Assembly: GCA_964610305.1 (NCBI GenBank)
Contig: CAZSVL010000002.1
Location: forward strand, 40,522-104,521
Direction: 5' to 3'
DNA from: an uncultured Gammaproteobacteria bacterium
GTDB lineage: Bacteria; Patescibacteriota; Patescibacteriia; Magasanikbacterales; JBBTXJ01
DNA: 64,000 nt
Shown here: positions 28,036 through 63,946 of the stretch, piece by piece
Position numbering within the stretch: the first letter of the stretch is position 1
Layout: every line of letters begins with the position of its first letter
The notes under the pieces: model-generated
Told to the model about the DNA's origin: nothing
Databases searched by the model: none
Seen by the model: the letters and a program-made list of their open reading frames with translations, nothing else
Program-made: the position numbers and the translations under genes

Positions 28036-28042
28036 ATACTCC

Positions 28043-34392: not shown

Positions 34393-36703
34393 TTTAGAAC
34401 AATTTTTACAAAAGATAGGGCAGGGCGCACTTTATGGTGCTGCGCTTGTTCCTGCTATTATTGCTACCTCTGGGTTTGTTTTTCCCTTTATTACACCTAA
34501 GGTTTTTGTGGTGCAAGCGATGGCAATGGTAGTTCTGGTTGTCTGGATGATTTTATATCTGTATGAGCCAAAGAGATACGCACCTAAAAAGTCCTGGATA
34601 TTTTTGACGTTGGCAGCGTGGGTCTTGTGGCTATTTATTAGCGCTATCTATGGCGTGGATTTTTATAGATCTATCTGGAGCGATCAGGAGCGCATGTTTG
34701 GTATATTCACGGTTGCCAGTTTTTTTGTGCTTGCGTTGGGTTCTAGCGTTTTTTTAAGAGAAAAGAAGGATTGGGGTGGTTTAGCTAAAGCCCTCTTACT
34801 ATCAGGAGCCGTTGTCATGATTGGGGGTGTATATCAACTTATTGATCCGACGGTTTTGGCTGGTGATGGTGGAAGAATTGAGAGTACAACCGGTAATGCA
34901 ACCTATTTGGCTTTTTACGCTGTGTTTATTTTTATACTGTCAATTTTTGTATGGGCTAAGAGGGCGGCTCTCAACGGTTCAAAAGAGATGCTGCTGCGGG
35001 GTGTATTAGCGGCTTTAATGGTTTTATCGGTCGTTAATTTTTTTGGAGCAGCGGCACGTGGTGTAGCTCTTGGATTAGCGGCAGCATTCATATGGGTTGT
35101 GGTAATAGCTGCGGCAATAGGTAGCAGTAAAAAAGTCAGGAACTATGCGCTTGGGGTGATGCTTCTTATGGTAGGCTTTTCAGCGCTATTAGTATTTGGT
35201 GGTAATACGCGACTGGTGCAGTCAGTGTCTCTGCTAAATCGTATTTCTGATTTTTCTATCTCAGGAACTGTAGAAACGCGACTGCGCACATGGGATAGCG
35301 CGTTTGCTGCAACGGCGGAAAAACCCCTCTTTGGGTGGGGGTGGTCAAATTTTGCTGCCGCATATGATAAGCACTATAATCCTGATCAGCTTAAACACGG
35401 TTATGGAGAAACGTGGTTTGATAATGCGCACAATACGGTCATTGAGGTGTTAACCACAAGCGGTGTTCCGGGCGCACTGCTTTATTTGATGATGTGGGTT
35501 GCCTTAATGGGATCACTCTTTGTCTTGTATAAGAAAGGGCGGCTGACAACGACAGAATATGCGATTTTGAGTGCCTACGTTGTCTTCCATTTTGTTCAAT
35601 CGTTATTTGTTTTTGACCATCCGCTGTCTTATCTGGCGCTGTTTTATGTGTTGGGCTATGTGGCTTATTTGGAGGCGGGGCAGCGTACCATATTTTCTCA
35701 AGGGTTGCGTTTAAAAGGCAACACAAAAAGAACGGTATCGGTGGCGCTTGTTCTTTTGGGAATCGTGATGCTTAATGTGACCGTTGTAAGAGCGGTGCGT
35801 GCCAATCGGCTTGAATCTGATTCACATGAGGCATTGGCTCTGCAGCGAGATATAGGCCTATGGCATGAATTAACCAAGCAAGCGGTAGAGGTTAGCGGAC
35901 CATACTCAAGTCATATTATTTTAAACGCCGGAAAGGCGCTTCAGGAATTGCCGCTTGTGGCTCTTCCGCGCACGCAAGATTTAGCACTCATTTATGAAGA
36001 CATGATCGGGCGCGTGGAGCGGAATATGGCCAAGCACCCACACTTTATCACCCACAAGCTGCTTTATGTGAGTCTTTTGGCCAATCAAGTGCTTCTGTTT
36101 GAGGAAACAAAAGAGGCTTCTGCGGCTCTGGCGCTCAGGGTGGCAGAGGATGCACGTGAACTATCGCCGCTTAGGCAGCAGATGTTCTATACGTTGATCC
36201 AGAGCTATATGGATGCTGATCGGTTTCAAAAAGCTCTTCCTCATATTGGCATGCTCCGTTCATCCTCTCTTTTGCGTGCCGATGTGCACAGGGTAATTGG
36301 CGGCTTTTACCTCTTGGCAGGTCAACACAAAGAAGCTATAGATTCATATGAGATGGCCATACGAGTTCATGGATCTCCTTTGGCCGTGGTTGGTGCTGGT
36401 GATAATGTGGAGTTATTGGAAGAATACGGGCTATTGCAGATAGAGCACGGAAATCCTATGCGAGGTGTGTGGTTTTTGGACAGCATTGCTTCGTGCCGAC
36501 AGTCTGATATAGATTGGGTTCCTTGTTTGTGGGGAAGCAGCGATATGGCCGCATTGTTTGTGCCAAGTAGGAAAGCGCTAGCAGCTGCTTTGATTTATTA
36601 TAGACAAGCGGGAAGAGATGATAGGGTTGCTGCATATACCACTTATACAGAGCGTTTTTATCAGGGACTGCAGCTGCAGCAGATTCTAGAGGCTACTCCT
36701 TGA
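34382..36703 (+). CDS. O-antigen-ligase-like membrane protein with C-terminal TPR-like domain (paralog 3)
   Basis: Overlaps the upstream stop by 11 nt. Conserved ...GETWFDNAHNTVIEVL block shared by all three paralogs. Confidence 0.6.
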   Translation: MNHNLEQFLQKIGQGALYGAALVPAIIATSGFVFPFITPKVFVVQAMAMVVLVVWMILYLYEPKRYAPKKSWIFLTLAAWVLWLFISAIYGVDFYRSIWSDQERMFGIFTVASFFVLALGSSVFLREKKDWGGLAKALLLSGAVVMIGGVYQLIDPTVLAGDGGRIESTTGNATYLAFYAVFIFILSIFVWAKRAALNGSKEMLLRGVLAALMVLSVVNFFGAAARGVALGLAAAFIWVVVIAAAIGSSKKVRNYALGVMLLMVGFSALLVFGGNTRLVQSVSLLNRISDFSISGTVETRLRTWDSAFAATAEKPLFGWGWSNFAAAYDKHYNPDQLKHGYGETWFDNAHNTVIEVLTTSGVPGALLYLMMWVALMGSLFVLYKKGRLTTTEYAILSAYVVFHFVQSLFVFDHPLSYLALFYVLGYVAYLEAGQRTIFSQGLRLKGNTKRTVSVALVLLGIVMLNVTVVRAVRANRLESDSHEALALQRDIGLWHELTKQAVEVSGPYSSHIILNAGKALQELPLVALPRTQDLALIYEDMIGRVERNMAKHPHFITHKLLYVSLLANQVLLFEETKEASAALALRVAEDARELSPLRQQMFYTLIQSYMDADRFQKALPHIGMLRSSSLLRADVHRVIGGFYLLAGQHKEAIDSYEMAIRVHGSPLAVVGAGDNVELLEEYGLLQIEHGNPMRGVWFLDSIASCRQSDIDWVPCLWGSSDMAALFVPSRKALAAALIYYRQAGRDDRVAAYTTYTERFYQGLQLQQILEATP

Positions 36704-41893: not shown

Positions 41894-43918
41894 ATGCAAA
41901 AAAAGGCATTTATTACCGGTATAACAGGACAGGATGGCTCGTATTTAACCGAGCTCCTTTTGGAAAAAGGATACGAGGTGCACGGACTTATCAGAAGAAG
42001 TTCTAATTTTAACACACAAAGAATTGATCATTTGTATCAAGATCCTCATGCGCCCAACCGGCGACTTTTTTTGCATTATGGAGATCTGAGCGATGCAAGC
42101 GCCCTCTCTCGCTTGGTGGAGAAAATTCAGCCGGATGAAGTTTATAATTTGGGAGCGCAGAGTCATGTGCACGTGAGTTTTGACATACCTGAATATACAG
42201 CTGATATTGTCATGCTGGGGACGGTAAGACTGCTTGATGCGATTAGAAAACTAGGAAAAGATGTTCGGTTTTATCAGGCGGGCAGCTCTGAGATGTTTGG
42301 CCGTGTTCGAGAAGTTCCACAGAGCGAGCTTACGCCGTTTTATCCACGTAGCCCCTACGCATGTGCCAAGGTGGGAGCGCATTGGATGACGGTGAATTTT
42401 AGAGAAAGTTATGATTTATTCGCCAGCAACGGCATCTTGTTTAATCACGAATCGCCTCGGCGCGGAGCAACGTTTGTAACCAAGAAGATTTCTAGAGCTT
42501 TTGCTCGCATTAAGGCAGGGATAGATCCGTGCGTTTATTTGGGAAATCTTGAGGCACGCAGAGATTGGGGATATGCCAAAGAATATGTTGAGGTAATGTG
42601 GCGTATGTTGCAGCATGATACTCCGGATGATTTTGTAGTTGCCACCGGAACAAACCATAGTATAAGAGATTTTGCTCAGCGAGCGGGGCATTATGCTGGT
42701 TATGATTTAGTGTGGGAAGGTGCTGGTTTGGATGAGGTGGGTATGGACAGGACTACAGGAAAAATTTTGGTGAGGATTGATAAACGTTACTATAGATTAG
42801 CTGAGGTTGAGCGATTGGTAGGGGATGCAAGTAAGGCTGAACGTGATCTTGGCTGGAAGCCTCAAACTGATTTTGATCAGCTGGTAAAAATTATGACGGA
42901 GCATGATATGCAGGAGTATGGTGTGAGTGGCGGAGCTCCAATCCTTTTTGAGCAAAACTCAACAGATCAAAGCGCTATAGCTAAAGACGCAAAAATATTT
43001 GTAGCCGGACATAAAGGTTTGGTGGGGTCTGCTATTGTGCGGGCGCTGAAGGCAAAAGGCTATAATAATATCATCAGCAGAAGCAAAGAAGAGCTAGATC
43101 TGCGAGATCAAAGAGGGGTAGACGCCTTTTTTGCCCAAGAAAAACCAGAATATGTGTATTTGGCAGCAGCGCGTGTGGGAGGCATTTTAGCTAATGATAC
43201 GCATAAGGCAGATTTTATATATGATAATTTAAGCATTGAAACTAACGTTATCAGCAGCGCTCACAAGTACGGCGTAAAAAAATTGCTATTTCTTGGAAGC
43301 AGTTGCATTTACCCTCGTGGTGCCCAGCAGCCAATGAAAGAGGATGCTCTGCTTGAGGGTGCACTTGAGCCCACCAATGATGCATATGCAATTGCAAAAA
43401 TTGCCGGCATTTATCTGTGCAGGTCATATCGGCAGCAGTACGGAAGCAACTTTATATCGGTAATGCCTACAAATTTGTATGGGCCAGGCGATAATTTTGA
43501 TTTGGAGAGTTCCCATGTCATACCGGCACTTATTGCAAAGTTTGTAAAAGCAAAAAATGAGGGATCTTCTAGTGTTAATATTTGGGGGACCGGAAAACCA
43601 CGGCGCGAGTTTTTACATGTTGATGATTTAGCTGACGCCTGTATTTTTTTGATGGAATCCTACCAAGATGCTGAGCTTGTGAATATAGGAACAGGCGTTG
43701 ATATCACCATAGAGCAGCTTGCCAAGAGCATTGCAGAAAAAGTAGGGTTTACGGGAGCGCTTCGTTTTGACACCAGCAAGCCAGATGGCACGCCTCGTAA
43801 GCTTTTAGATGTGAGCCGTCTTCACCAGTTAGGCTGGCGTCATCAAATCCAGCTTGACGAGGGGCTCAGCAGTACTATTTCTTGGTATGAGCAAAACATC
43901 TCTAGCACCACGCAATAA
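41894..43918 (+). CDS. gmd-fcl: bifunctional GDP-mannose 4,6-dehydratase / GDP-L-fucose synthase (Gmd-Fcl fusion)
   Basis: N-terminal half matches Gmd ([33 protein letters not shown]). C-terminal half matches Fcl/WcaG ([53 protein letters not shown]). Confidence 0.9.
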
Positions 43919-44990
43919 GACAGATTTCCTTTTTGTGTATAGGAACCCCGCTCTCAATGAGGTTCTTGATAGTAAAGATGAGTGCGGATTGCCCCAAGAT
44001 TTTTTGTACGGGATGAGCGCTCTGTCGCCTGCGGGCAATTGGATTAATGTCCCCAAAGGAGCCAGAGTGGGCTTAAGAAGACTAACCAATGTTATTGAGT
44101 GGCCGTTTACTCGTTTGGCAAAACTGGGCTTTCCGCTAGAAATATACCCTCAATTTAAGGCCAAGCTTAATAGATCCCGAGTAGTGTTTGGCATTAATGA
44201 TGCAATAGGTTTTGGATTGCTTTTTTACAAGCGTCTTGGTCTGCTTAAGGCTGATGTGTGGGTAATTGCCCAAAGCGTTCATGAACGAGCGCTTAGACAT
44301 TTTAAGTTAAAGTGGCTTACTATGCCTTTTGTAAGGTGGCTTTTAAAAGGAGCTGAGCGTGTATTTGTTCTGTCTGATGCGGCAAAAGAGCCTATGATCG
44401 TCAATTTTGGAGTGGATGCTAAAACGCTGCATAAGTTCTCTTTTGGCGCTGATACTCAATTTTGGAAACCGGCGCGGGGTCCACGATCTAACTATGTTCT
44501 GAGTATTGGTAATGATTCTAATAGAGATTACAAAACCCTTCTTGCTGCCACTACTTCAAACGTACCGGTAAGAATAATTACGCATTTGTCAGTAGAAAGA
44601 TCTGCCGGAGAGCTCATGTTAGAATCGTCTCTTAGCTTTGAGCAGGTACGCGAGCGATACCAGAGTGCCGCACTTGTTGTTATTCCAACCACAGAATTAC
44701 TTTATGAATCGTCTGGTCTCTCATGCGCATTGCAGGCAGCTGCATGTGGAGCTCCTTTGATTTTGCCTGCTATACCGGCGCTGCAGGAAATTTTTAAGAA
44801 TAAGGAGCACTGTCTTTTTTATAAGCCGGGAGACAGCCGTGAGCTCGGGCACTTGATAGAGCAATTGCTTGAGGATAAAAAAAGGGCAGCACGCATGGGA
44901 CGGAGGGCGGCATCATACATAAAAAAATACTTATCTTTAGACGCTCCCGCTAGGAGCATAAGAAAAGTCTTGCAAAAAAAAGCAGCATAA
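43887..44990 (+). CDS. GT4-like glycosyltransferase
   Basis: C-terminal GT4 motif region ([24 protein letters not shown]). The start is uncertain: ATG 43887 overlaps the upstream gene by 32 nt. Confidence 0.5.
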
Positions 44991-45006: not shown

Positions 45007-45819
45007 ATGAAGGCATTGAAGAATGAAAAATTAGGCGTCATGGGCGCTGGAATGGTAGGGGGAGCGGTTATTGGCTATCTGGATAGTGTAGGCGCAGATT
45101 TTGTTATATATGATCCCGCTAAGGGGCATACCGATGCGGAGCTGCTCAATGAGGCTAGCATTGTATTTTTATGTGTTCCAACACCTTTTGAGGAAGATGG
45201 TTCTGGATTTGATTTAAGCTATGTTCACAGCGCACTGAGTACTCTCAAGGGACGAAAAATTGTTGTTATTAAATCAACCGTTGTTCCAGGAACAACAGAG
45301 CAGCTTCAGGCGCATTATCCGCAGCACAGGATTATGTATAATCCTGAGTTTTTAACCGAGCTTACCACCGAGCAAGACTTTGCTTATCCGGATCGTCAGA
45401 TAATTGGATACACTAAGAGAAGTTTTGGTGTGGCTACGGATGTTATGCTACTGCTGCCATCAGCGCCTTTTGAGCGAGTTGTGCCGGCTACGGAAGCGGA
45501 GATGATAAAGTATTATGGTAATACGTGGTTTTCCGCTAAGGTGGTTTTTGCTAACCAAATGTATGATCTCTGTCAACGATTAAATGTAGATTATGATCTG
45601 GTAAAAGATGGTGTTGCGGCCGACAAGCGTATAGGAAGAACCCATCTGGATATTTTTCATCGCGGTTACAGAGGTTATGGCGGAAAGTGCCTTCCCAAGG
45701 ATACGCGCGCATTAATTCAATTGGGCGATCAATTGGGCATGTCTATGGATATGCTTAAAATGGTAGAGCATATAAACAACAAGATTAGAAAGCAGTCAGA
45801 TTTGGATTTAGATAGGTAG
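45007..45819 (+). CDS. UDP-glucose/GDP-mannose 6-dehydrogenase-family protein, truncated (lacks C-terminal nucleotide-sugar-binding domain)
   Basis: GAGMVGG Rossmann motif and the catalytic GGKCLPKD Cys motif at residue 228. The protein ends at 270 aa. Confidence 0.6.
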   Translation: MKALKNEKLGVMGAGMVGGAVIGYLDSVGADFVIYDPAKGHTDAELLNEASIVFLCVPTPFEEDGSGFDLSYVHSALSTLKGRKIVVIKSTVVPGTTEQLQAHYPQHRIMYNPEFLTELTTEQDFAYPDRQIIGYTKRSFGVATDVMLLLPSAPFERVVPATEAEMIKYYGNTWFSAKVVFANQMYDLCQRLNVDYDLVKDGVAADKRIGRTHLDIFHRGYRGYGGKCLPKDTRALIQLGDQLGMSMDMLKMVEHINNKIRKQSDLDLDR

Positions 45820-45820: not shown

Positions 45821-46243
45821 ATGTTTGTGTTGGACAAGAAACCGCCGCGCAACATGGAGGTGGAAAAAGTGGGATTTTTTATCTCTCTTTTTTTGTTTTT
45901 GAGTATTATTAATGTGATTTTCAGGTTGGGTGTTAGCGCCAGCAGTGTCAGACTCCCTGCTGGACTTTTTGTGGTGGCACTGCTCGTACTCTTAAGAAGT
46001 AGGTGGAATCGCAGGCATGCTATCTCACTTGCAGCGGGAATGAAGCGTTTTGGACAGCTTCTCAATGATATGGTGGTCGGTCTTGGTCTTTTTGTTGTTT
46101 ATGTGTGTGGAGTTGGCTTAACAGCATTGAGCGTGCGATTGATCAGAAAGCGTCTTTTGCCTGTCAGCAAGAAGGGCGATACGTATTGGCAACAACTGGA
46201 CTTAAGCAAGCAAGAGCGATCAGCATATCTTGATCAATTCTAA
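45821..46243 (+). CDS. small hypothetical membrane protein
   Basis: 2-3 TM helices, tightly packed between neighbours. Confidence 0.4.
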   Translation: MFVLDKKPPRNMEVEKVGFFISLFLFLSIINVIFRLGVSASSVRLPAGLFVVALLVLLRSRWNRRHAISLAAGMKRFGQLLNDMVVGLGLFVVYVCGVGLTALSVRLIRKRLLPVSKKGDTYWQQLDLSKQERSAYLDQF

Positions 46244-46244
46244 T

Positions 46245-47993
46245 ATGACAGTACTTGGAATATCTTGCTATTATCATGATTCTGCAGCAGCACTTATTGT
46301 AGATGGAAAGCTTGTTGCTTGCGCAGAGCAAGAGCGGTTTTCGCGAAAAAAGCATGATAGCGATTTTCCGCTAGATGCCATAACTTTTTGCCTGCAGAAG
46401 GCGGGCATTACAATTGATCAGGTAGATGCGGTAGCTTTTTACGAAAAACCACTTCTAAAATTTGAACGGCTTTTGTTTTCTCATATAGATGGATTTCCTA
46501 AGAGCCTCCCAACGTTTCTTAAGGCCATGCCGTCATGGCTTGGGACAAAATTAAGATTGCAATCAAAAATAAAAAGGACGCTTAAATACAGGGGGCCGGT
46601 ATATTATGTTCATCACCACATGGCGCATGCCGCAGCAGCTTTTTTGGTGAGCCCGTTTAAACAGGCAGCTGTCTGCACCAGCGACGGCGTGGGGGAGTGG
46701 ACCACCAATTCCCTTGGTCATGCATCAGAAAAAGAGATTACCCTTAAAAAAGAGATCCGATTTCCGCATTCTCTTGGCTTGCTCTATTCTACCGTCACGG
46801 CATATCTTGGTTTTTCAGTGAACAATTCAGAGTATAAGGTTATGGGTCTGTCACCTAATGGAGATCCAAGCGTATATAGGGAGCATTTTAAGCAGATAAT
46901 TGATGTAGCCGAGGACGGCAGTTACGCTTTTGACATGAGCTACTTTAATTTTCATGTGGGATCGCGTATGCCCTCCAGAAAGTTTTGCGATTTGTTTGGC
47001 GGGCCAGCACGCGATGCTGAATCGGAGTTGCTGCAACGTCATAAAGATATTGCCGCAGCACTGCAGGAGCGGGTTGAGGAAATACAGCTCATGCAGTTGC
47101 GCCACCTTTACAATATAACTAATTGTGAGAATTTAGTGATGGGCGGTGGTGTGGCTCTCAATAGCGTCTTCAATGGCAAGATTTTAAGCGAGACGCCTTT
47201 TTCTAAGGTATGGATACACCCCAATGCAACCGATGGTGGATCAAGTGTGGGGGCAGCTTTTTATGTTTATAACACTGTTTTTGACAATGAGCGGGATTAT
47301 GAATTTAACAACCCTTACCAAGGCCCTGCGTTTAGCGACAGGCAGATAAAGGGGTTTTTAGAAGAGCATGGTGTGGTGTATGATCAGTTTGAAAGTAAGG
47401 ATGCTTTAGTTGAGCGTACGGCAGAGCTCTTAGTTGAAAACAAGGTTATTGGTTGGTTTCAGGGCGGCATGGAGTGGGGGCCCAGAGCGCTGGGCGCGCG
47501 CAGTATTATCTCAAACGCAAGCAATCCAGATATGAAGGAGATACTCAACACAAAGGTTAAGCATAGGGAGCCTTTTAGACCATTTGCGCCGGTAGTGTGT
47601 GCAGAGGATGCTCCTGTGTATTTTGAGTGCGACGTGCCTGTGCCTGTGCCCGCAGATTACATGCTTATGGTCTATCCCATAAAAAAAGAGTTTCATGACA
47701 GCATACCTGCGGTAACGCATGTAGATGGAAGCGGGAGACTCCAGACGGTGCGCAGAGAGCAAAATGAACTTTATTACGATGTAATAAAGGCTTTTGGCAG
47801 ACTCAGTGGTATCCCCATACTGGTAAACACTTCTTTTAATATCAGAGGCGAGCCTATTGTGTGCTCGCCATTTGATGCATATCGTTGTATGATGGGCACG
47901 GGCATAGATTGTTTAATAATGGGATCATTTGTAATCTTCAGGGAAAATAATCCTCAACACATGTGGGATAGTGAGCAGCTTGCCATAGATTAA
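46245..47993 (+). CDS. NodU/CmcH-family carbamoyltransferase
   Basis: N-terminus MTVLGISCYYHDSAAALIVDGKLVACAEQERFSRKKHD is the carbamoyltransferase N-domain. Length about 580 aa. Confidence 0.75.
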   Translation: MTVLGISCYYHDSAAALIVDGKLVACAEQERFSRKKHDSDFPLDAITFCLQKAGITIDQVDAVAFYEKPLLKFERLLFSHIDGFPKSLPTFLKAMPSWLGTKLRLQSKIKRTLKYRGPVYYVHHHMAHAAAAFLVSPFKQAAVCTSDGVGEWTTNSLGHASEKEITLKKEIRFPHSLGLLYSTVTAYLGFSVNNSEYKVMGLSPNGDPSVYREHFKQIIDVAEDGSYAFDMSYFNFHVGSRMPSRKFCDLFGGPARDAESELLQRHKDIAAALQERVEEIQLMQLRHLYNITNCENLVMGGGVALNSVFNGKILSETPFSKVWIHPNATDGGSSVGAAFYVYNTVFDNERDYEFNNPYQGPAFSDRQIKGFLEEHGVVYDQFESKDALVERTAELLVENKVIGWFQGGMEWGPRALGARSIISNASNPDMKEILNTKVKHREPFRPFAPVVCAEDAPVYFECDVPVPVPADYMLMVYPIKKEFHDSIPAVTHVDGSGRLQTVRREQNELYYDVIKAFGRLSGIPILVNTSFNIRGEPIVCSPFDAYRCMMGTGIDCLIMGSFVIFRENNPQHMWDSEQLAID

Positions 47994-47994: not shown

Positions 47995-49572
47995 ATGAAA
48001 TTACTAAGGAGCATTACCAGATATCAGCTCAGCATTGCTGGGCTGTTTGTAATGGCGCTTTTTTTGCTTCTCTTTAGGTTGGACATGCGTTCTTTTTGGA
48101 CGGATGAGTGGTATTCGTTTAGGTTTTTTGACATGAGTTTATTTGAGTATTTAAAGTATTATTGGCAACATCCTGATAATCATCCGCCTGGTTTTTATGC
48201 CATTACCACGTCTTTTGTTAATTTCTTTGGAAGATCAGATGTTGTAGTTAGGCTGCCAGCTGTTATAGGTGGTTTGTGGGCCTTTGTGGCGAGCGCTTTT
48301 CTTATTAAAGAGACGGTGGTTAAGAATAGGAGGGGTATTATGCTGCTCTCGTTGCTGCTTATAGCAACCGCTCCTTACTTGATTCTAATAGGACAGACGG
48401 CGCGTTATTTTACCCTTGCGGCAGGCGCTGGACTTTCAGTGCTATATGCAATGCTTAGATTAATAAAGAAGCCCAGCATAGCCAGAGGATTGTGGTACGC
48501 TTTTGCGCTTGTTGTTGTGGGTTACCTTGATTACCCAACTCTTTTTTACAGTGTTTGTGGGAGTGGGGCGGTCATAGCACTTCATTATTTTCGCAATCGA
48601 CAAAAGCGGGCAGTTTATACGTGGCTTGGGTCTGGCCTTCTTGCTGGTTTAGTAGTTTCCCCGCTTGTTCCTATTTTGCTCGCGGAGATCAGGGCAGAAT
48701 CTTTATCTGGCCCTGATGTGCTCTCTGGCGGTCTTATGGCGTGGGGCATGCGCGTGCTGTCTTACGGGTATGCTCTTAGTCACGGCATGATAAGCTTGCC
48801 CTTTGGTATTGTTACCGTGTTGTGGCTCGTCTTATTTGCTATACTGGGATTTATTTTTCTTAAAAGGCGAAGGGCGGCAATTCCTCGGTTAGCAGAGCTT
48901 GATTATGTAATAGTCTACGGAGCTGTGGGGCTCATCTTAAATACGCTCCTTTTTGCTGCGCTTGAGAGATATAGCCCTATAGCATTTCCGCGTTATGTGC
49001 TTTTGTCGCTTTATCTGCTGTTTATAGTACTTTCTGCCTTCATAATGCGGCTTTCTGCATCAAGGCATATCAAGGCCGTTCTAGCGGGTCTTTTAGTGGC
49101 AATTCACGTTTTTGGACTAAGCGCTTATTACAGCAGATCTCATTTTGTGGACGCAACTTTTTTTGCCGACAATAGGGGTATGTTCGCTTTCGTAAAAGAA
49201 AACGCGCAGGAGGGCGATGCCCTTTTGCTTTCTGATGATTTGCCGGAAGAGATTTATCGGTGGTATAAGGAGCGCTATTTTGAGGGTCTGGTTACCTATG
49301 ATGGTAAGATAGAGACGCCGGCCGATAGGATTTGGGTGGTGGCGATGGCACATGATTATGCGGCAGGCAGTTGGGGGTCTGACTTGTTTGTTCATGAACT
49401 TGTGGATCGTCTTGGGAGCACTCAATGGCACATAAGCAAAAGTAGATACGGTTCACCTCTTCATGATGAAGTGGTCGCTATAAAAAGCGGTGTTACAGGC
49501 GTTCAAAGTTATCTGTATAAGGTGGGAGCCTTTTTAGTGGAAAAGCGTGTTGAGCCGTTGCCAGAGCTGTGA
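47995..49572 (+). CDS. GT-C fold glycosyltransferase (ArnT/PMT-like, GT39/GT83-type), polytopic membrane protein
   Basis: Many TM helices. First periplasmic loop has the DE motif (FWTDEWYSF) typical of ArnT/PMT enzymes. Confidence 0.55.
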   Translation: MKLLRSITRYQLSIAGLFVMALFLLLFRLDMRSFWTDEWYSFRFFDMSLFEYLKYYWQHPDNHPPGFYAITTSFVNFFGRSDVVVRLPAVIGGLWAFVASAFLIKETVVKNRRGIMLLSLLLIATAPYLILIGQTARYFTLAAGAGLSVLYAMLRLIKKPSIARGLWYAFALVVVGYLDYPTLFYSVCGSGAVIALHYFRNRQKRAVYTWLGSGLLAGLVVSPLVPILLAEIRAESLSGPDVLSGGLMAWGMRVLSYGYALSHGMISLPFGIVTVLWLVLFAILGFIFLKRRRAAIPRLAELDYVIVYGAVGLILNTLLFAALERYSPIAFPRYVLLSLYLLFIVLSAFIMRLSASRHIKAVLAGLLVAIHVFGLSAYYSRSHFVDATFFADNRGMFAFVKENAQEGDALLLSDDLPEEIYRWYKERYFEGLVTYDGKIETPADRIWVVAMAHDYAAGSWGSDLFVHELVDRLGSTQWHISKSRYGSPLHDEVVAIKSGVTGVQSYLYKVGAFLVEKRVEPLPEL

Positions 49573-49797: not shown

Positions 49798-50502
49798 CTA
49801 GCGCTCCAGCCAAAGATCAGCGCCCACACGGAGACCTTCAAGCATCATGGCTTTAGTCATTTTTGATGAGCCGGCCGTGCGATCCGCAAAGGTGATAGGA
49901 ATTTCTTTGAAGCGCGCTCCGCATTTCATAGCTCTGAATTTCATTTCAATTTGAAATCCATAGCCATCAGCCTTGATGGTGTTTTTTAAAATGCATTCTA
50001 AAAGGTCTCTTTTGTAACCAACAAATCCAGCAGTCGCATCTTTAGTTGGCAGTCCAGTTGCCGCTCGGGCATAGAGGTTTGCCGCCTTTGATAAGAGGAG
50101 GCGGTAAGAAGAGAACTCAGTAACGTTTCCACCGGGGACATAACGTGAACCAATGACCACATCATGGTTTGATAGAGCACTGATCATTGAGGATAAATAA
50201 CGTGGATGGTGAGATAAATCCGCATCCATTTGAACGATAGCGCTAATTTGTGAATCTGCTAGCACTTTTATAAATCCATCAATATATGACTGACCGAAGC
50301 TTTTAGGTTTTTGCCGCTTAAGTAGCTCTACAGCATTGTTTTTTTGTTGGTAGGATTCAACGGTCGTCGCGGTTCCGTCTGGCGATCCGTCGTCAACAAC
50401 TAAGACGTTTATGTCAGAATTCGCATATTGAAATATAGTATCCAATGTTTTTTCAATGGTGAGGGCTTCGTTGTACGTTGGTATTATAATGGTAGTTTTC
50501 AT
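49798..50502 (-). CDS. GT2 polyprenyl-phosphate glycosyltransferase (Dpm1/ArnC-like)
   Basis: IIIPTYNEALTI...LVVDDGSPDGT...QMDADLSH is the Dpm1-type DxD GT2. Confidence 0.75.
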   Translation of the reverse strand: MKTTIIIPTYNEALTIEKTLDTIFQYANSDINVLVVDDGSPDGTATTVESYQQKNNAVELLKRQKPKSFGQSYIDGFIKVLADSQISAIVQMDADLSHHPRYLSSMISALSNHDVVIGSRYVPGGNVTEFSSYRLLLSKAANLYARAATGLPTKDATAGFVGYKRDLLECILKNTIKADGYGFQIEMKFRAMKCGARFKEIPITFADRTAGSSKMTKAMMLEGLRVGADLWLER

Positions 50503-51950
50503 CGGCCCATGGCTTTTGCAATAATGTGGACGGTTTTAAGCACGATAACAATGTCCATCAGAAGGGATCGGTATTTCATATAGTATAGATCATATTCCAG
50601 TTTCACCAGATTTTCTTCTAGTGTTGCGCCGTAGCGGTAGCTTACTTGTGCCCAGCCGGTAAGACCGGGGCGAATAAGATGTCTAATACTATAGTAGGGC
50701 ATGCGTGATTGCAGTTGATCAACAAACGCAGCGCGCTCAGGTCTCGGGCCAATAAGATTCATTTCTCTTTTCAGGATATTCCATGATTGAGGAAGCTCAT
50801 CAATTCTGAGTTTTCTTAGCCATTTACCCACTTTGGTTATGCGCGTGTCATTAGCACTGGCAAATTGTGGGCCGCTCTCTTCTGCCAGCCCATCTTTACC
50901 TTTTGCATACATGGTTCTGAGTTTGTAAATGGTGAACGGCTTATTATGCAGGCCAACGCGTTTTTGTTTGATAAAAAGAGGTCTGCCTGATTCTGCTAAA
51001 ATAGCGATCGCCACAAAGGGAAGCAAAATGAGTAGTAGTAGGCCGAGCGCTATGGCAAAGCCAACGTCTGCAACCGTGCGCAGCGCATCGTAATATTGCT
51101 TTCGGCTTTCCCGCAAGTTTTGCCAAAACCAGCTCTCGTTTACCATATCGGCATTTACCCGGCCGGTTATGTGTTCATAAAAAGTAGCTAAATCTGCCAT
51201 TTCCACGCGCCAGAAAAGTAACTCATAGAGTTCTTTTTCTAGCTCTCCTGCGCGCGCAAGGTGAGGAGCGATTACCACGGTGTGGATTTCTTTGATGTCT
51301 ACTACTGATCTAATGCGCATGGGGTCCGAGAAAAGCTGCACGCTAGAGCTGATGTGGTGGGGAATAAGGTGCTGCTCTGGTTCCATGATTGCAGCCGTAG
51401 TAAAACCAAGCTGAGGATCTTTTGCAAATGAGGTGACAAGGTCCTCAACACGCGGATGAAATCCTAAAAATAGGATGGTGCGACGCAATAGTTTTGGACC
51501 AAGTGAGTGATTAAAAAGGGCGCGCCAAAGGGAAATCAGTACTATGCTAAGCAGTACCGTTAGTACTAAATTGGTTTTTGGCGTGATTCTAAAGGCGGGA
51601 ACAAAGTAAAAGAACATGAGCCCCACAAAAAAGTTTGCGATGAAGCTAATGAGAAGATTTTGGAAAAAACGAATTGAATTTTTTGCCTTCCTAATATCGT
51701 AGAGGCCATTGATAAAAAAGATTATAACCCACAGAGCAAAAACGATCCCAAAGGCAACTCGGTGCGTACTCCAATAGGGGCCAATGTCAAGCGTTTTGTA
51801 GCGAATCATAAGAGCCACAAGAAGCGCTCCTTGCATGAGCAATAGATCGGCAGCGGCTAGAATAATTTGTTTAAACTTTATGACCCGGTTATTCATAGAT
51901 GCCTTGAGCTTATCAAAAAGAGGGGTTTTTTTCAAGATAGACCCTTGCAC
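50499..51950 (-). CDS. initiating polyprenyl-phosphate sugar-1-phosphate transferase (WbaP/CpsE Bac_transf family)
   Basis: C-terminal Bac_transf domain (PLFIKQKRVGLHNKPFTIYKLRTM...DELPQSWNILKREMNLIGPRPE...GLTGWAQV). Confidence 0.8.
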   Translation of the reverse strand: MQGSILKKTPLFDKLKASMNNRVIKFKQIILAAADLLLMQGALLVALMIRYKTLDIGPYWSTHRVAFGIVFALWVIIFFINGLYDIRKAKNSIRFFQNLLISFIANFFVGLMFFYFVPAFRITPKTNLVLTVLLSIVLISLWRALFNHSLGPKLLRRTILFLGFHPRVEDLVTSFAKDPQLGFTTAAIMEPEQHLIPHHISSSVQLFSDPMRIRSVVDIKEIHTVVIAPHLARAGELEKELYELLFWRVEMADLATFYEHITGRVNADMVNESWFWQNLRESRKQYYDALRTVADVGFAIALGLLLLILLPFVAIAILAESGRPLFIKQKRVGLHNKPFTIYKLRTMYAKGKDGLAEESGPQFASANDTRITKVGKWLRKLRIDELPQSWNILKREMNLIGPRPERAAFVDQLQSRMPYYSIRHLIRPGLTGWAQVSYRYGATLEENLVKLEYDLYYMKYRSLLMDIVIVLKTVHIIAKAMGR

Positions 51951-55474: not shown

Positions 55475-55822
55475 ATGGAGAATGCGTGGTACGCACTACA
55501 AAACATAGGATTTGGTCTTAAATATGCATCGCTTTCCTTGTTAGCGGCCGATGCCGCCATAGGATTTGTGGTGGGTTTTGTAATGGCCACTTTTATGTAT
55601 CTATTTATAATGACAGAGCGTAGCCCGGTTCATATAAAGGAGATGGTGCGTCATAAAGATCCGGCACACGCCTTTACTAAAGTTTCAGCCAAGAATAAAA
55701 AAGGTATTTTTACAGACTCCTTTACATCTTTTCAAAATGAATATCACCAAGTGAGAACGCTTGTCTTTGGTACGGTGATATTATTTTTGATTGTCGTAAT
55801 GATTGCTGTTAGTCGCTATTGA
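55475..55822 (+). CDS. possible small membrane protein (doubtful)
   Basis: Two hydrophobic segments, but it lies in a divergent intergenic gap and no clear RBS was found. Confidence 0.2.
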   Translation: MENAWYALQNIGFGLKYASLSLLAADAAIGFVVGFVMATFMYLFIMTERSPVHIKEMVRHKDPAHAFTKVSAKNKKGIFTDSFTSFQNEYHQVRTLVFGTVILFLIVVMIAVSRY

Positions 55823-57153
55823 GAAGGAGAATTTTGTCCAGGACTGTTTGGTGGTGTTTGGTTGCTAGGAGGGGGTGTTGATTGTTGGTTTGGCGCTGCT
55901 TGTGCCACTTTTTTTGTTTTACGGTGATGAGAAACACTGTAGGCTATTGAGCCGCCGGCAATGAGGAGGATCAGACCAACGGCAGTAGCAAAGAGTGTGT
56001 TTTTGTTGGCAGAAAAGAAATTTAAAACCTCAAAACTAACGTCTCTTTTGTTGCTTTGATGAACACCATATGAAAGTTGGCCTGTAATGTAATACGTGCC
56101 TGCGTTTTCTGCCCTGAACGTGTGGGTAAATGATTGAGAATCGCTCACGGGAACAAAAAGGGCATCAGTAGAGGCAGTATCAATGAGAACCTCATCGTGG
56201 TATATGTCAAAAATCATCTTTGCGTCGACGCCACTTTCACCTACGTTTTCTGCTGCTGCATTTATTCTAACAAGTTCTCCTTGTCTGTATTCATCTTTCT
56301 CTACCGTAAATTCTGATAGATTAACCTCCTGCGCCAGGCTTCCTTTTGGAAAGACGCGAAAGCCAGAGATTTTTTCTATGATGGGATTATTGTCTTCGTC
56401 ATAGAAAACTACGGTGGCTTCATAAGAGCCTACGTCAAGCTCAAGATCAGTTTGTGCGGTTACCACCTGCCGCGTAAAAGCACCAATTATAGGTATGTTT
56501 TCAGCCTGTACACGCGCATTAAAAATAAAGTCTGGATTTTCTTTATCAATTACCGTGAGCTGAATCAGAGATGGGCGTGCTGCTACGTTACCGGTATTAT
56601 TCATAATAAAACGAAAGTCAATGTTGCGACCAACTTCTGAATTGTTGACTGAAATGTCCGAAATGTCGTAGATTACGCGCTCGTCATTAGTTACATGAAA
56701 AACAATAGTTCCTTGCGCGCCTGCGTACACTTTTACGGTAGTACCTCCCTGGCTATCGTCTGCTGCGCTTGCGGGTGGAATTACGGTTCCGGTAACGGTG
56801 GCGTGATACGTTCCGGCAGCCAGGTCTCTTGGCTCTATAAAAAATTCAAAGTTGGTCATGCGATCTCCCGGCTCAAATCCAACCGTCATGTCATGTTTTG
56901 GTTTTATGTATTGGGCCGCTGGGCCGCCAATTTCAACACTAATTTTTTCACTTCCATCAGTGCCGCCACGTGTAAAAAGAACAAAACCAGGAACTGATGA
57001 TCCTGAGAGAACATTATCTGCTCTAAATTGGGCCGGTGTGATACCAAAGGCCAACGTAGATTGCGGAAAGGCAGCTGTAAGAAGTAGCAAACTGACAGCT
57101 GCACAGAAAAAAAGTATCTTAAAAAAAAGGTCCTTTCTCAAAATATTTATCAT
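55816..57153 (-). CDS. cell-surface protein with signal peptide, beta-sandwich repeats, C-terminal TM anchor and Pro/Gln/Ser-rich tail
   Basis: N-terminal signal, mature end ...AFGITPAQF, C-terminal TM (LFATAVGLILLIAGGSIAY). Paralog of 57166-58095. Confidence 0.55.
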   Translation of the reverse strand: MINILRKDLFFKILFFCAAVSLLLLTAAFPQSTLAFGITPAQFRADNVLSGSSVPGFVLFTRGGTDGSEKISVEIGGPAAQYIKPKHDMTVGFEPGDRMTNFEFFIEPRDLAAGTYHATVTGTVIPPASAADDSQGGTTVKVYAGAQGTIVFHVTNDERVIYDISDISVNNSEVGRNIDFRFIMNNTGNVAARPSLIQLTVIDKENPDFIFNARVQAENIPIIGAFTRQVVTAQTDLELDVGSYEATVVFYDEDNNPIIEKISGFRVFPKGSLAQEVNLSEFTVEKDEYRQGELVRINAAAENVGESGVDAKMIFDIYHDEVLIDTASTDALFVPVSDSQSFTHTFRAENAGTYYITGQLSYGVHQSNKRDVSFEVLNFFSANKNTLFATAVGLILLIAGGSIAYSVSHHRKTKKVAQAAPNQQSTPPPSNQTPPNSPGQNSPSQ

Positions 57154-57165
57154 ACATTCATTATA

Positions 57166-58095
57166 TCATTTTTTTTTAAGTGAGTCTTGTGAAAAGCGGT
57201 AGAGATGAAAGAGTGATCCGCACAAGGCTAGAACCACAAGTAAAATAAACTTTTTTTTATGTTGAGCGAGGCGCTCAGTGAGTGTGAGTGGAGTAAGGAC
57301 AGTAAAAGTAACGGTATCGCTATCAATAAGAGCATTTTGTTTGTCATCAAGAAATGTTAGTTGTGCTGTGTGTTTTCCACTCCCAACTACATGATCAAAG
57401 GTGGGGAAAATGCTTGTTTCAGAAAATGGAGACAAGGTAATACCATCTTTTGGCTGGTAATATATTGTTTCTGTGGTGCCGTCAGGAGAGATGAGCTTTA
57501 CAGCGAGAGATGTAGCATAAAAGGGAATATTGCTGTCATTTACCCCCAAGAAAGACATTTCTACATTCTCTCCGGCACTTTTTGCTCCTATGCTTACTTG
57601 CTCAATAGCGCGTTTGTTTATGATGACCTCATTGGTTATAGAAAAATGTATGCGAGCTCCAACGGCGTGTATTACATTGAGTGTGGGGCCGTTTTCTTGC
57701 TTTCTTGCAGGTTCAAAAGAAAAAGCAGCAATTATCTCATAAGAGCCTGCAGGCAACTTTGAGCCATCAAGGCTAAAAGGGTAGGACAGTGTTGTTTTTT
57801 CTGTTTTCCAGGGAACAGATGTTCCAAGAGGGGTTTTAAGAGCTTGTTTTCCGTTTCCGCTAATGTGCACGTTTACCACCATATCCTCAGTTGGAACCTT
57901 TGCATTAGAAAGATGAAAAGCGCGATGAATATCGGCGGATGTGTGGATATTATCAATGGTGATCGCAGAGGGGCTTACACCAAACGCATACACACTCTGA
58001 ACTCCTAAAAAGGTGCCGAGGAAAAATATTGTGAGTGCAAGAATTTTTGTGTTTAGGAATCGGCTATGGCCGTAAAGACTATGGTATGTGTGCAT
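57166..58095 (-). CDS. cell-surface protein, paralog of 55816-57153, with C-terminal TM anchor
   Basis: Mature N-terminus ...AFGVSPSAITIDN matches the AFGITPAQFRADN of its neighbour. C-terminal TM plus KKK. Confidence 0.55.
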   Translation of the reverse strand: MHTYHSLYGHSRFLNTKILALTIFFLGTFLGVQSVYAFGVSPSAITIDNIHTSADIHRAFHLSNAKVPTEDMVVNVHISGNGKQALKTPLGTSVPWKTEKTTLSYPFSLDGSKLPAGSYEIIAAFSFEPARKQENGPTLNVIHAVGARIHFSITNEVIINKRAIEQVSIGAKSAGENVEMSFLGVNDSNIPFYATSLAVKLISPDGTTETIYYQPKDGITLSPFSETSIFPTFDHVVGSGKHTAQLTFLDDKQNALIDSDTVTFTVLTPLTLTERLAQHKKKFILLVVLALCGSLFHLYRFSQDSLKKK

Positions 58096-58958
58096 GTGCC
58101 GCCGGCGCCCTTGTCAGGCGCTTTTAGTAATGTATAAAGAGTTTTTGTTGATTCAGATGCGTCATTTGTTCTCTGAAGCAGATTCAATTGAACCGTGCTA
58201 GCATCGTTGGTAAATTCCGTGCCATCGCCATAGGTAAATCCAGAGGTGGCGCTGTAATGGGTGCTGGTTGTGTTAATGATGCCCGCTGTACAGCTCATGT
58301 TATCGGCACTTTGAGAAGCGTCCATGTCTCTGTTGCCTGTATTGGTGAATAAGAGGGATTTTTCAGCAGATTGTGCCCCTAGTGTTAGGGTTCCATAATC
58401 AACATTCTCAGTAATGTTAAGCGCCAACAGGCTGTTGTATTCCCATGTGTCGGTGCCCTCATCAGAGGCGGACGCGTCATCTTCAACTTTTATATATGAT
58501 GTCCAATTAGTACCAGAGTGAGGCGCCCCGGCATCGGTGGGGTCTGCGTAGTATTGCAGTGCAATGGAATACTCATAGACAATATCTTGATCAGCTCCGC
58601 CGCTGCAGCCGCTGAGTGTTACGGTGCCAGCGTAGCAATCATTATTGTCTGCAGAGCATGCTTCAGCTGAGGCAACGTTGGTACGGTGCATTACTTCTGT
58701 CCATTGAGAAACAGCGTCTATCTCCTCACAGCCGTCAAGATCAGAGGCGGTTCCGTGCACGTAGACGGTAACGGTGGTGTTTTCAGAAGGCGATATGGAA
58801 GATACATCTGATCCTAAAGATGTTAGGGATGTGGTTATAGTATCAATGGTGGGAGCATTATTAGCCTGCCCTTCCGCAGCGTCAAACCATAAAAAAAAGC
58901 TAAGCATCACTGATGAGCCTATAAGAATTTTTTTGAGTACGTTGGGTATTGTCACGCA
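58053..58958 (-). CDS. secreted T/S/D/G-rich protein with conserved Cys pairs (paralog A)
   Basis: Signal peptide when started at GTG 58958. The C-terminus ...GGTCTHTIVFTAIADS parallels its paralog. Confidence 0.5.
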   Translation of the reverse strand, partial: CVTIPNVLKKILIGSSVMLSFFLWFDAAEGQANNAPTIDTITTSLTSLGSDVSSISPSENTTVTVYVHGTASDLDGCEEIDAVSQWTEVMHRTNVASAEACSADNNDCYAGTVTLSGCSGGADQDIVYEYSIALQYYADPTDAGAPHSGTNWTSYIKVEDDASASDEGTDTWEYNSLLALNITENVDYGTLTLGAQSAEKSLLFTNTGNRDMDASQSADNMSCTAGIINTTSTHYSATSGFTYGDGTEFTNDASTVQLNLLQRTNDASESTKTLYTLLKAPDKGAGGTCTHTIVFTAIADS

Positions 58959-58983
58959 TATAGTATAGCATAATACACGGATC

Positions 58984-59012
58984 AAAAAACCCTCTGATAG
59001 AGGGTTTTTTGT
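58984..59012. terminator. bidirectional terminator
   Basis: AAAAAACCCTC-TGATA-GAGGGTTTTTT. Confidence 0.7.
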
Positions 59013-62080: not shown

Positions 62081-62125
62081 CTTTCTTTGCAGCAAGTATA
62101 CCATAGGTACTCCATAAATAATGTG

Positions 62126-62131
62126 GTATAA
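62126..62131 (+). promoter_or_regulatory. -10 element TATAAT placed 10 nt before ATG 62142 (possible leaderless mRNA)
   Basis: TGGTATAATCTTCTCACTATG. No SD sequence is present. Confidence 0.35.
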
Positions 62132-62141
62132 TCTTCTCACT

Positions 62142-63158
62142 ATGGGTGACAATATCTCATTTGAGAAAAAAAATGTTCTTGTCACAGGAGGGGCCGGCTT
62201 TATTGGTTCTCTGCTGTGTGAAGAGCTTATAAAGGAAGCGCGTGTTATTTGTATGGATAACTTTTTATCCAGCAGCGCGTTTAACATAGACCATTTGTTG
62301 CCTTACGATGACTTTGAGTTTGTTAAGCATGATGTTTCCGTACCTTTTAAGCTCACCGATTTTTCAGAGATTGAAAAATTTGCCGTAGAGTTTCAGGGAG
62401 TGCAAGAGGTGTATCATTTGGCATGTCCCACAGCACCAAAACATTTTGATGAATTTAAGGTAGATACGCTTAAGGCAAACTCGCTGGCAATGATAAATAC
62501 GCTAGAGATTGCCAAGCAATACAAAGCCAAATATTTATTTGCCAGCAGCTCTGTGGTGTATGGTCCGCCAAAAGAAAAGGACATGAGATTTGCAGAGAAT
62601 TTTACGGGTGTGGTGGATCAGCTCAGCAAGCGTGCTTGCTATGACGAGGGAAAGCGTTTTGGCGAGACATGCGTTGATACGTACCGGCAAATGTTTGATC
62701 TTGATGTAAGGATCGCCAGGATTTTCCGCACGTATGGCCCACGCATGCAACTGCGCGAGGGGCGCATGATTCCTGATTTTGTTCTCAGTGCACTTGATGG
62801 AAAAGATTTGGTTATTCATGGAGATGAAACGTTCTCTACCTCTGTTTGCTATGTTTCAGATATTGTAGATGGTCTTATAAGGCTGATGCACAGGAATGAG
62901 TACTTGGGACCGGTAAATATTGGAGATGATAAACGTTACCTGATTTCAGAAATCGCTCAGAAGATTATTGATTTGTTAGAATCAGAGTCCAAGATTACGT
63001 ATGAGGCAAAAATTGCCTTTATGACATCACTTGGTTTGCCTGATCTTACAAAAGCGCGCGAAGAGTTGGGTTGGGTGCCGCTTGTTCGTTTAGAGGATGG
63101 TCTGCGTAAGGTAATTGACTACACTATCGCAAACAAGGAGTCTTTGCGGGAATTTTAA
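62142..63158 (+). CDS. UDP-glucuronate decarboxylase-like SDR (UXS / ArnA-C-like)
   Basis: VLVTGGAGFIGS; ASSSVVYG; ACYDEGKR (YxxxK); RIARIFRTYGPRM..GRMIPDF. All closely match UXS-family blocks. Confidence 0.75.
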   Translation: MGDNISFEKKNVLVTGGAGFIGSLLCEELIKEARVICMDNFLSSSAFNIDHLLPYDDFEFVKHDVSVPFKLTDFSEIEKFAVEFQGVQEVYHLACPTAPKHFDEFKVDTLKANSLAMINTLEIAKQYKAKYLFASSSVVYGPPKEKDMRFAENFTGVVDQLSKRACYDEGKRFGETCVDTYRQMFDLDVRIARIFRTYGPRMQLREGRMIPDFVLSALDGKDLVIHGDETFSTSVCYVSDIVDGLIRLMHRNEYLGPVNIGDDKRYLISEIAQKIIDLLESESKITYEAKIAFMTSLGLPDLTKAREELGWVPLVRLEDGLRKVIDYTIANKESLREF

Positions 63159-63245: not shown

Positions 63246-63268
63246 AAAAGGCGCTTGCCTTTTTTTTG
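63246..63268. terminator. bidirectional terminator
   Basis: AAAAAAGGC-GCTT-GCCTTTTTTTT. Confidence 0.7.
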
Positions 63269-63289
63269 ATCCTGATGTTCACTACTAGG

Positions 63290-63946
63290 ATGAATGACAC
63301 GGTAGTGGTAATCCCTGCGTACAATGAGAGCGGTAGAATAGGGCAGACTATTAAAGGGCTTGCTGATTTGCCCTATGATCTTGTGGTGGTAGATGATGGC
63401 TCTTCTGACGGGACTGCTCAGGCCTGCGCTGGCGCAACGGTTTTGCGGCACGGTCTAAATAGAGGGCAAGGGGCTGCTCTTCAGACCGGGACACAATGGG
63501 CGCTGCAAAGAGGCGCCTCTTACGTGGTACACTTTGATGCTGATGGTCAGTTTGAGCCATCAGATATAAAAAGAGCGCTTGACATAGTGCGCAGTACAGA
63601 TATCCACATTATTTTGGGGTCACGATTTTTGGGAGAGAGCAGCGAGCTCCCCTTTACTAAGCGCTACATTATTTTTCCAGTGGCACGCGTCATAAATTGG
63701 GCTTTTTCTGGCTTGTGGCTCTCAGATGTTCATAACGGCTTTAGAGTTATGACGAGCCGTGCCGCATCTGAAATAAATATTGAGGTTGATCGCATGGCTC
63801 ACAATACGAACATTTTAAGCCAGATCAGAAAAAAGAAGTTGAGCTATCAGGAAATGCCCGTACGGGTATATTATCATAGGTACGGACAGGGTGTTGGCGG
63901 AGGTTTTAAGATAATGGGAGATTTACTCATGGGTTGGTTTTCGTAA
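63290..63946 (+). CDS. GT2 polyprenyl-phosphate glycosyltransferase (GtrB/ArnC-like)
   Basis: VVVIPAYNESGRI...LVVVDDGSSDGT...HFDADGQ. Confidence 0.75.
   Translation: MNDTVVVIPAYNESGRIGQTIKGLADLPYDLVVVDDGSSDGTAQACAGATVLRHGLNRGQGAALQTGTQWALQRGASYVVHFDADGQFEPSDIKRALDIVRSTDIHIILGSRFLGESSELPFTKRYIIFPVARVINWAFSGLWLSDVHNGFRVMTSRAASEINIEVDRMAHNTNILSQIRKKKLSYQEMPVRVYYHRYGQGVGGGFKIMGDLLMGWFS

Follow-up and report, generated by a model that had tools for sequence, protein, structure and literature searches.

Can a nucleotide-sugar 6-dehydrogenase do without the domain that holds the nucleotide? To our knowledge every UDP-glucose, UDP-N-acetylmannosamine (UDP-ManNAc) or GDP-mannose dehydrogenase that has been solved or characterised has three domains, the C-terminal one of which gives the invariant substrate-binding Lys and the NAD-binding Arg. 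The question is raised by an open reading frame (ORF) at positions 45007-45819 of a 64,000-nucleotide (nt) stretch of contig CAZSVL010000002.1 (the whole stretch is called the window here), which encodes a protein of 270 amino acids (aa) resembling the first two domains of UDP-glucose dehydrogenase (UGDH) and then stops. Patescibacteria are tiny-celled organisms with reduced genomes, and we think it reasonably probable that the ORF encodes a working enzyme from a family of minimal, NAD-dependent sugar 6-dehydrogenases found across the Patescibacteria, and most probably a UDP-glucose 6-dehydrogenase without the C-terminal domain.

Architecture and conservation of the short dehydrogenase

The first-pass annotation of the window, made from the sequence alone, described an NAD-binding and a central domain, a Cys at residue 228 and the absence of a C-terminal domain, and profile searches bear this description out. 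UDPG_MGDP_dh_N (PF03721, E 2.7e-21) covers residues 41-139, equivalent to profile positions 67-179 of 187, the central domain UDPG_MGDP_dh (PF00984, E 2.9e-24) covers residues 163-258, and UDPG_MGDP_dh_C (PF03720) has no match in the 270-aa protein. The NCBIfam model TIGR03026 aligns at profile positions 68-298 of 413 only. Within the N domain the Rossmann features are in place, with GAGMVGG (residues 13-19) as the GxGxxG motif and Asp36 as the acidic residue at the end of strand beta-2, invariant in an alignment of 35 sequences of the short family (A1). The catalytic Cys228 lies in GYGGKCLPKD, its codon at 45688-45690. Alignment A2 sets the protein against two sequences, E. coli Ugd and a homologue of full length from Patescibacteria: beyond the C-terminal domain, about 32 residues are missing from the N domain after strand beta-2, the loop ahead of the catalytic Cys is four residues longer than in full-length UGDH, and the alignment stops about 13 residues after Asn257, short of any counterpart to Lys320 and Arg327 of the C-terminal UDP-binding domain.

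Two of three canonical domains, and a TIGR03026 score below the cut-off, are what one might expect of a pseudogene fragment or of an assembly or sequencing artefact in which a full-length ugd was cut by an indel or nonsense change near 45800, and decay or a sequencing indel had indeed been suggested for this gene. Its relatives speak against this explanation. The best 120 among 5.8 billion proteins are all 252-312 aa long, consist of the N and central domains only and show 55-90% identity; their named sources are Patescibacteria, Parcubacteria or Uhrbacteria. In 1.84 billion 50%-identity representatives, searched exhaustively, 528 clusters matched at E<=1e-30, the best 150 of which comprise 116 proteins of 240-330 aa, 17 shorter fragments and 17 longer proteins. 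Mean column identity in A1 is 63%, with the C-terminal ends falling within a few residues of one another, and in 80 of 80 GTDB species loci, all of them in Patescibacteria-type metagenome-assembled genomes (MAGs), the match to a full-length reference of 472 aa breaks off at about its residue 295-300. The closest relative (locus L098) shares 90% protein and 79% DNA identity with the window gene, at a nonsynonymous divergence (pN) of 0.057 and a synonymous divergence (pS) of 0.76 with synonymous sites saturated; it has its stop at the same codon position, as TAA, followed by the same TA(A/G)-T-ATG junction. Neither tblastn nor profile searches found a C-domain remnant downstream of the stop or in any frame of the window, and the next gene begins 2 nt past the stop. 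The gene is under strong purifying selection and is a member of a conserved family, not a fragment. The pseudogene or indel explanation is refuted because the end point is family-wide, the relatives number at least in the hundreds and pN is far below pS against L098, and we leave it hardly any probability.

An AlphaFold2 model computed with the family alignment (predicted local distance difference test, pLDDT, 83.8; predicted template modelling score, pTM, 0.86) shows a chain that stops after the last helix of the central domain. The solved relatives found by sequence are all 387-494 aa long, with no solved structure of the short form among them.

We note that the annotation of these short proteins is inconsistent, members of the best 120 being named either "hypothetical" or as if they were a full "UDPglucose 6-dehydrogenase". 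Many of the MAG records (L008, L009, L013 and others, from binchicken assemblies) are titled "uncultured Gammaproteobacteria" or "Saccharibacteria" despite a Patescibacteria-type gene and synteny, and these titles look like placeholder or mistaken taxonomy. In addition, proteins related to the short dehydrogenase, with 30-58% identity, are encoded on twelve IMG/VR contigs classed as viral (L086-L097); these contigs could be phages of Patescibacteria with glycan genes, or cellular contigs that were misclassified.

Active-site residues and a predicted mechanism

How much of the catalytic centre has been kept? The catalytic Cys, Lys, Asn, Asp, Glu and Thr of UGDH (Ugd/HasB; TIGR03026; PDB 3VTF, 7KWS, 1DLI, 2Q3E) and its trans-acting Arg are all common to the short form, as are most of the positions that mark UDP-glucose dehydrogenase (UDPGDH)-type specificity. 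Residue roles compiled for the S. pyogenes and human enzymes (PMC4794789, PMC3265891, PMC3184952) allow the comparison to be made position by position, with the UGDH numbering given here in brackets. Thr91 (Thr118), Glu114 (Glu141/Glu161), Asn183 (Asn219), Gly225, Gly226 and Cys228 (Gly257, Gly258 and Cys260) and Asp232 (Asp264) are invariant in both A1 and A2, and Glu118 (Glu145) is conserved at >=90% in A1. With Glu165, Lys168 and Asn172, likewise invariant in A1 and the same against the full-length sequences of A2, the central domain has the whole residue set of the nucleotide diphosphate (NDP)-sugar dehydrogenase family. In the PEFLRE segment of UGDH, Glu141 (Glu161) is the base for thioester hydrolysis and the backbone of Glu145 touches the beta-phosphate (PMC4794789, PMC3265891), and in UGDH dimers Arg244/Arg260, the counterpart of Arg208, extends into the neighbouring subunit, where it binds the glucose (PMC3184952, PMC4794789). 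These features extend well beyond the aligned sequences: of 253 near-full-length family proteins, 250 have the PE[FRY]x motif, 250 the E..K...N motif and 221 the GG.C..KD motif, with a Lys directly ahead of the Cys in 162 of the 221. In the loop and motif around Cys228, the residues H213, H218, R222, G223, G225, G226, C228, K231 and D232 are invariant in A1, and K227 is present at >=90%.

What sets the short form apart from UGDH is its length (270 aa against 387-494 aa), an NAD domain with about 32 residues fewer and the lack of the PF03720 Rossmann-like domain, with which go Lys320, invariant in all NDP-sugar dehydrogenases as a substrate contact, Arg327, 99% conserved and in a salt bridge to the NAD pyrophosphate (PMC4794789), and Asp/Asn325. 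The Tyr of the canonical GxGYVG motif (S. pyogenes Tyr10, whose role is described in PMC4794789) is Met16 in the window protein, and across the 253 family proteins this position is Met in 132 and Tyr in 11. The extra basic residues of the lengthened pre-Cys loop, His213, His218, Arg222 and Lys227, are candidates for a compensating role.

The short protein is a UGDH homologue that probably works as UGDH does, and the following course of events would fit its residues. The protein would be a homodimer, held together by the central helical domain and with Arg208 of each subunit extending into the active site of the other, and would carry out a two-step oxidation in which the C6 alcohol is converted to an aldehyde, captured by Cys228 in the form of a thiohemiacetal. 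The next hydride transfer would yield the thioester, whose hydrolysis would release the uronic acid, with the same residues at work as in full-length UGDH (Lys168, Asn172, Glu114, Asp232 and Thr91). Binding of the nucleotide-sugar might fall to the PEFLTE segment and to the longer, basic loop H213-K227 wrapped around the substrate, a loop that may substitute for Lys320 and Arg327 of the lost C-terminal domain. The UDP-glucuronic acid (UDP-GlcA) product would be passed to the UXS-like decarboxylase at 62121 and to the glycosyltransferases of the glycan locus and, in other genomes, to 4-epimerases.

Two-domain oxidoreductases of the 6PGDH-like type, for instance 3-hydroxyisobutyrate dehydrogenase, glycerol-3-phosphate dehydrogenase and ketopantoate reductase, offer a comparison of size, but they share only 11-20% identity with the short form; they carry out single two-electron steps and have no catalytic Cys, whereas the short form has the signatures of an NDP-sugar dehydrogenase. 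Membership in the beta-hydroxyacid / 6PGDH-like dehydrogenases, judged by NAD_binding_2 / NAD_binding_11 and the catalytic Lys/Ser/Asn set, was tried and rejected.

Partners, neighbours and the choice of substrate

Might the missing domain be supplied by another protein? A partner had been suggested at the first pass, and by this explanation the short protein would be one subunit, with the nucleotide-sugar bound either by a C-domain protein encoded elsewhere or by a linked 4-epimerase-type short-chain dehydrogenase/reductase (SDR) in a channelling complex. The window and 81 related loci (1.26 Mb) were searched with three C-domain queries (tblastn) and with a four-sequence profile run over six-frame ORFs, a profile small enough to miss very divergent C-domains. 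Neither search yielded an ORF for a C-domain on its own, and the idea of a split gene with its C-domain subunit encoded next door is not supported. With E. coli Ugd as tblastn query the sole window match above noise lies at 45139-45717, and the 64-kb window contains no second full-length Ugd; ORF 55816-57153, considered as a further Ugd, has a weak tblastn match only (E 2.3) and no Pfam family, and was dismissed. In the window and the 81 loci, a full-length family member was found beside a short one just once, in the region 2756-5192 of L039; it is UDP-ManNAc-dehydrogenase-like rather than UGDH-like, so that in L039 the two dehydrogenase forms co-exist, probably with different substrates. The ORF ahead of this full-length gene resembles, by eye, a NeuB-type sialic-acid synthase.

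The other candidate partner is an SDR. When the genes around the short dehydrogenase were clustered in 71 loci, an SDR of about 300 aa was found directly adjacent on the same strand, upstream or downstream at -34 to +83 nt, in 44 of them. Among families it matches GalE (181 bits) and TviC (179 bits) best, with all curated cut-offs missed, and among structures the 4-epimerases 4ZRM, WbgU and WbpP. In one protein (P0122) the short dehydrogenase is fused in frame to a 4-epimerase-type SDR through a linker of about 30 residues, and the low confidence of the substrate loops in the monomer model would also suit a protein completed by a partner. Against this, the adjacent SDR is missing from 27 of the 71 loci, consecutive enzymes of a pathway are often neighbours without forming a physical complex, and the window has no such SDR, so that an SDR partnership, possible in other genomes, fails to explain the gene studied here. 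We regard a partner of either kind as improbable. The pairing itself is like that of TviB with TviC and of Ugd with UDP-GlcA 4-epimerase, in which a dehydrogenase is followed by a 4-epimerase acting on the uronic acid; it differs from TviB/TviC-type pairs in that the SDR scores below curated cut-offs, the dehydrogenase has two domains and the pair is absent from the window.

A working UDP-glucose 6-dehydrogenase would be expected to supply UDP-GlcA, and in genomic linkage to UXS-like decarboxylases and glycosyltransferases the short form again resembles UGDH. The UXS-like gene that the first-pass annotation placed at 62142 is ORF 62121-63158, with human UDP-glucuronate decarboxylase as its closest solved relative (E 2e-67). 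In 29 of the 71 loci the same strand bears a UXS-like decarboxylase no more than 10 kb away, as either the second gene downstream (best PDB match UXS1, E 5e-57) or closer kin of the window's UXS-like gene; such closer relatives (41-76% identity) occur in 17 related loci on the same strand as the short gene and within about 8 kb. A GT4-type neighbour cluster is present in 42 of the 71 loci, and the order of glycosyltransferase followed by short dehydrogenase seen in the window recurs in L098. Another member of the family (P0218) is fused to a GalU-like pyrophosphorylase domain (GalU 243 bits, E 3.5e-72; next family 7e-40). The view that a minimal Ugd might be functional thus gains indirect support, by sequence comparison, from invariant catalytic residues, neighbours that use UDP-GlcA and occasional fusions to nucleotide-sugar enzymes.

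We also observed further fusions, as gene-called, among P0121, P0125, P0216 and P0124, to an APS kinase (N-terminal), a GT2 (C-terminal), a GT4 (N-terminal) and a helix-turn-helix domain. Apparent fusions of 585 and 612 aa in L009 and L033 were discarded as artefacts of ORF calling that read through GC-rich upstream sequence. In L085 (10001-15500), L041 and L065, which are of Nealsonbacteria type, a same-strand group recurs that comprises the short dehydrogenase, a 4-epimerase-like SDR, a UXS/ArnA-like SDR, a polysaccharide deacetylase, a FemAB-like protein and a DegT-type aminotransferase; the group, all members of which score below curated cut-offs, is reminiscent of the Arn (UDP-4-amino-4-deoxy-L-arabinose, UDP-Ara4N) pathway.

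Alternatively, the protein might be a real thiol-dependent enzyme with a substrate other than UDP-glucose, such as glucose-1-phosphate, a polyprenyl-phosphate sugar or a further NDP-sugar, for instance UDP-N-acetylglucosamine (UDP-GlcNAc) or UDP-N-acetylgalactosamine (UDP-GalNAc). If glucose-1-phosphate were used, glucuronic acid-1-phosphate would be formed and then activated by a GalU-like pyrophosphorylase; if UDP-GlcNAc or UDP-GalNAc were used, the dehydrogenase and the adjacent epimerase would make up a TviB/TviC-like pair. Loss of the domain with Lys320 and Arg327 may well accompany a substrate with a different handle or none, Phe175 (index 359), Ala182 (index 366) and Lys227 (index 410) depart from the UDPGDH consensus at the index positions that mark NDP-sugar dehydrogenase specificity (PMC4794789), and the adjacent SDR has nearly the same score with GalE as with TviC, a UDP-GlcNAcA 4-epimerase. 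The GalU-like fusion suits either order of reactions, and PpgS-like GT2 and GT-C genes point to polyprenyl-phosphate sugars being made at the locus. On the other side, the loop that wraps uridine and ribose is kept, with Gly at index 406 as is characteristic of UDP users, and so is the PEFLxE segment that meets the beta-phosphate. The index positions Lys215, Phe259, Glu262, Asp391, Arg393, Gly406, Tyr407 and Lys414 are like those of the UDPGDH group and index 359 is hydrophobic (Phe), while the marks of UDP-ManNAc dehydrogenase (Arg 259, Pro 262, Arg 359, Val 414) and of GDP-mannose dehydrogenase (His 359, Ala 406) are absent. UXS-like genes, which need UDP-GlcA specifically, are present in the window as well as in the 29 loci. 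A different substrate is in our estimation the less likely outcome, yet it is the alternative to which we give most weight.

Several observations weigh against a minimal UDP-glucose 6-dehydrogenase and should be set beside those that favour it. With Lys320, Arg327 and Asp/Asn325 lost and Tyr10 replaced by Met, activity on UDP-glucose would need compensation. The short protein lacks two defining marks of the curated NDP-sugar dehydrogenase family, the C-terminal domain and a score above the model cut-off: it reaches 161.7 bits with TIGR03026, below the 189.8 cut-off, and stays far under the cut-off of every UGDH equivalog model of NCBIfam. The active-site loops at residues 111-130, 171-180 and 201-230 are the least confident parts of the AlphaFold2 model (pLDDT 57-72). 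The GalU-like fusion is equally compatible with a sugar-1-phosphate substrate. A 4-epimerase-type SDR is absent from the 64-kb window, whose only SDR-type sequences are the UXS-like gene and a Gmd-Fcl fusion. Finally, a full-text literature search found no description of a UGDH without the C-domain, with papers beyond its coverage possible. That the C-terminal domain is dispensable, be it that an enzyme of 265-280 aa binds UDP-glucose by a remodelled basic loop, that nucleotide binding is handed to a fused or adjacent SDR or that the substrate is nucleotide-free, such as glucose-1-phosphate, is a proposal we put forward tentatively, and we doubt it more than we credit it.

The surrounding glycan locus and its implications

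The window gene stands in a glycan locus whose features, together with the motifs discussed above, are collected in Table 1. The ORF that follows it had been described as an unrelated membrane protein, and nothing was found to change this: it has no Pfam or NCBIfam match and no relative in the 81 related loci.

Table 1. The short dehydrogenase gene, its conserved motifs and the genes of the window's glycan locus
Feature	Position in window	Strand	Remarks
Short UDP-glucose dehydrogenase-like gene, 270 aa	45007..45819	+	ATG-to-TAG ORF; trimmed Rossmann NAD domain and central catalytic/dimerisation domain, without C-terminal domain
Dinucleotide-binding motif GAGMVGG (G13-G19)	45043..45063	+	M16, V17, G18 and G19 invariant in A1
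PEFLTE (P113-E118), equivalent to PEFLRE of UGDH	45343..45360	+	P113-T117 invariant, E118 >=90% in A1
Start of long inter-domain helix, E165/K168/N172	45499..45522	+	Equivalent to S. pyogenes Glu201/Lys204/Asn208; invariant in A1 and A2
Arg208 (DKRIG), equivalent to Arg244/Arg260	45628..45630	+	Invariant in A1 and A2
Substrate-wrapping loop and catalytic motif H213-LDIFHRGYRGYGG-K227-C228-LPK-D232	45643..45702	+	By comparison with full-length UGDH, longer by 4 residues and more basic
Stop codon TAG	45817..45819	+	Protein end conserved family-wide, ~13 residues past invariant Asn257
Fused GDP-mannose 4,6-dehydratase / GDP-L-fucose synthase, 674 aa	41894..43918	+	TIGR01472 569.5 bits, GDPFucSynFcl 502.9 bits, both above cut-off
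GT4/GT1-type glycosyltransferase, directly upstream	43854..44990	+	Pfam Glycos_transf_1; start codon uncertain
Membrane protein, 140 aa, starting 2 nt after the dehydrogenase stop	45821..46243	+	Three hydrophobic segments
NodU/CmcH-type carbamoyltransferase	46230..47993	+	Pfam Carbam_trans_N, Carbam_trans_C; NodU partial match
Polytopic membrane protein, probable GT-C (PMT_2-like) glycosyltransferase	47995..49572	+	Weak Agl23 match; L006 and L008 have relatives at 35-36% identity, that of L001/L006 with PMT_2
Bac_transf initiating phosphoglycosyl transferase	50499..51950	-	Pfam Bac_transf E 2.9e-55; relatives in 24 related loci
UXS-like UDP-glucuronate decarboxylase, UDP-GlcA consumer	62121..63158	+	Best PDB match human UXS1, E 2e-67; next best 1.8e-25
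GT2, PpgS-like polyprenyl-phosphate glycosyltransferase	63266..63946	+	Pfam Glycos_transf_2; PpgS 152.7 bits, below cut-off; in 21 related loci
Wzy_C (O-antigen ligase/polymerase) membrane proteins, five large paralogues	12335-13753, 14981-17041, 29753-32038, 32080-34392, 34346-36703	+	Three in tandem

Both halves of the Gmd-Fcl fusion score above their cut-offs, and thus the whole GDP-fucose pathway is contained in one polypeptide; the fusion is part of the glycan locus and lies outside the UDP-GlcA branch. For the carbamoyltransferase, which hints at O-carbamoylated glycans, the listed start is a TTG at 46230, but the ATG at 46245 is the more probable one. The locus has two further GT4-type glycosyltransferase genes. 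Two Wzy_C genes also stand beside the short dehydrogenase in L004. Runs of large ORFs (309-1256 aa) without a Pfam family occupy 55816-60085 on the minus strand and 21759-29719 on the plus strand, and four of the family-less ORFs are consecutive on the minus strand between a subtilase block and the UXS-like gene. Amid the glycan locus, at 19959-21539 (+), an ECF (extracytoplasmic function)-type sigma factor gene is followed by one for a DUF5667 protein, possibly an anti-sigma factor.

The supply of a uronic-acid sugar within a glycan locus would be ordinary biology, while the dispensability of Lys320 and Arg327 would surprise specialists. A large family under selection that keeps the catalytic centre without the C-domain would show how little protein the four-electron oxidation needs and, if active, would offer a compact scaffold for enzyme engineering. 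If the substrate proves to be different, the family would represent a new step in the cell-surface glycan synthesis of Patescibacteria, and if nucleotide binding is handed to an SDR, or the substrate carries no nucleotide, a new route to uronic acids in reduced genomes. Settling the function of the short dehydrogenase would mend current reconstructions of how Patescibacteria make UDP-GlcA, UDP-xylose and uronic-acid glycans.

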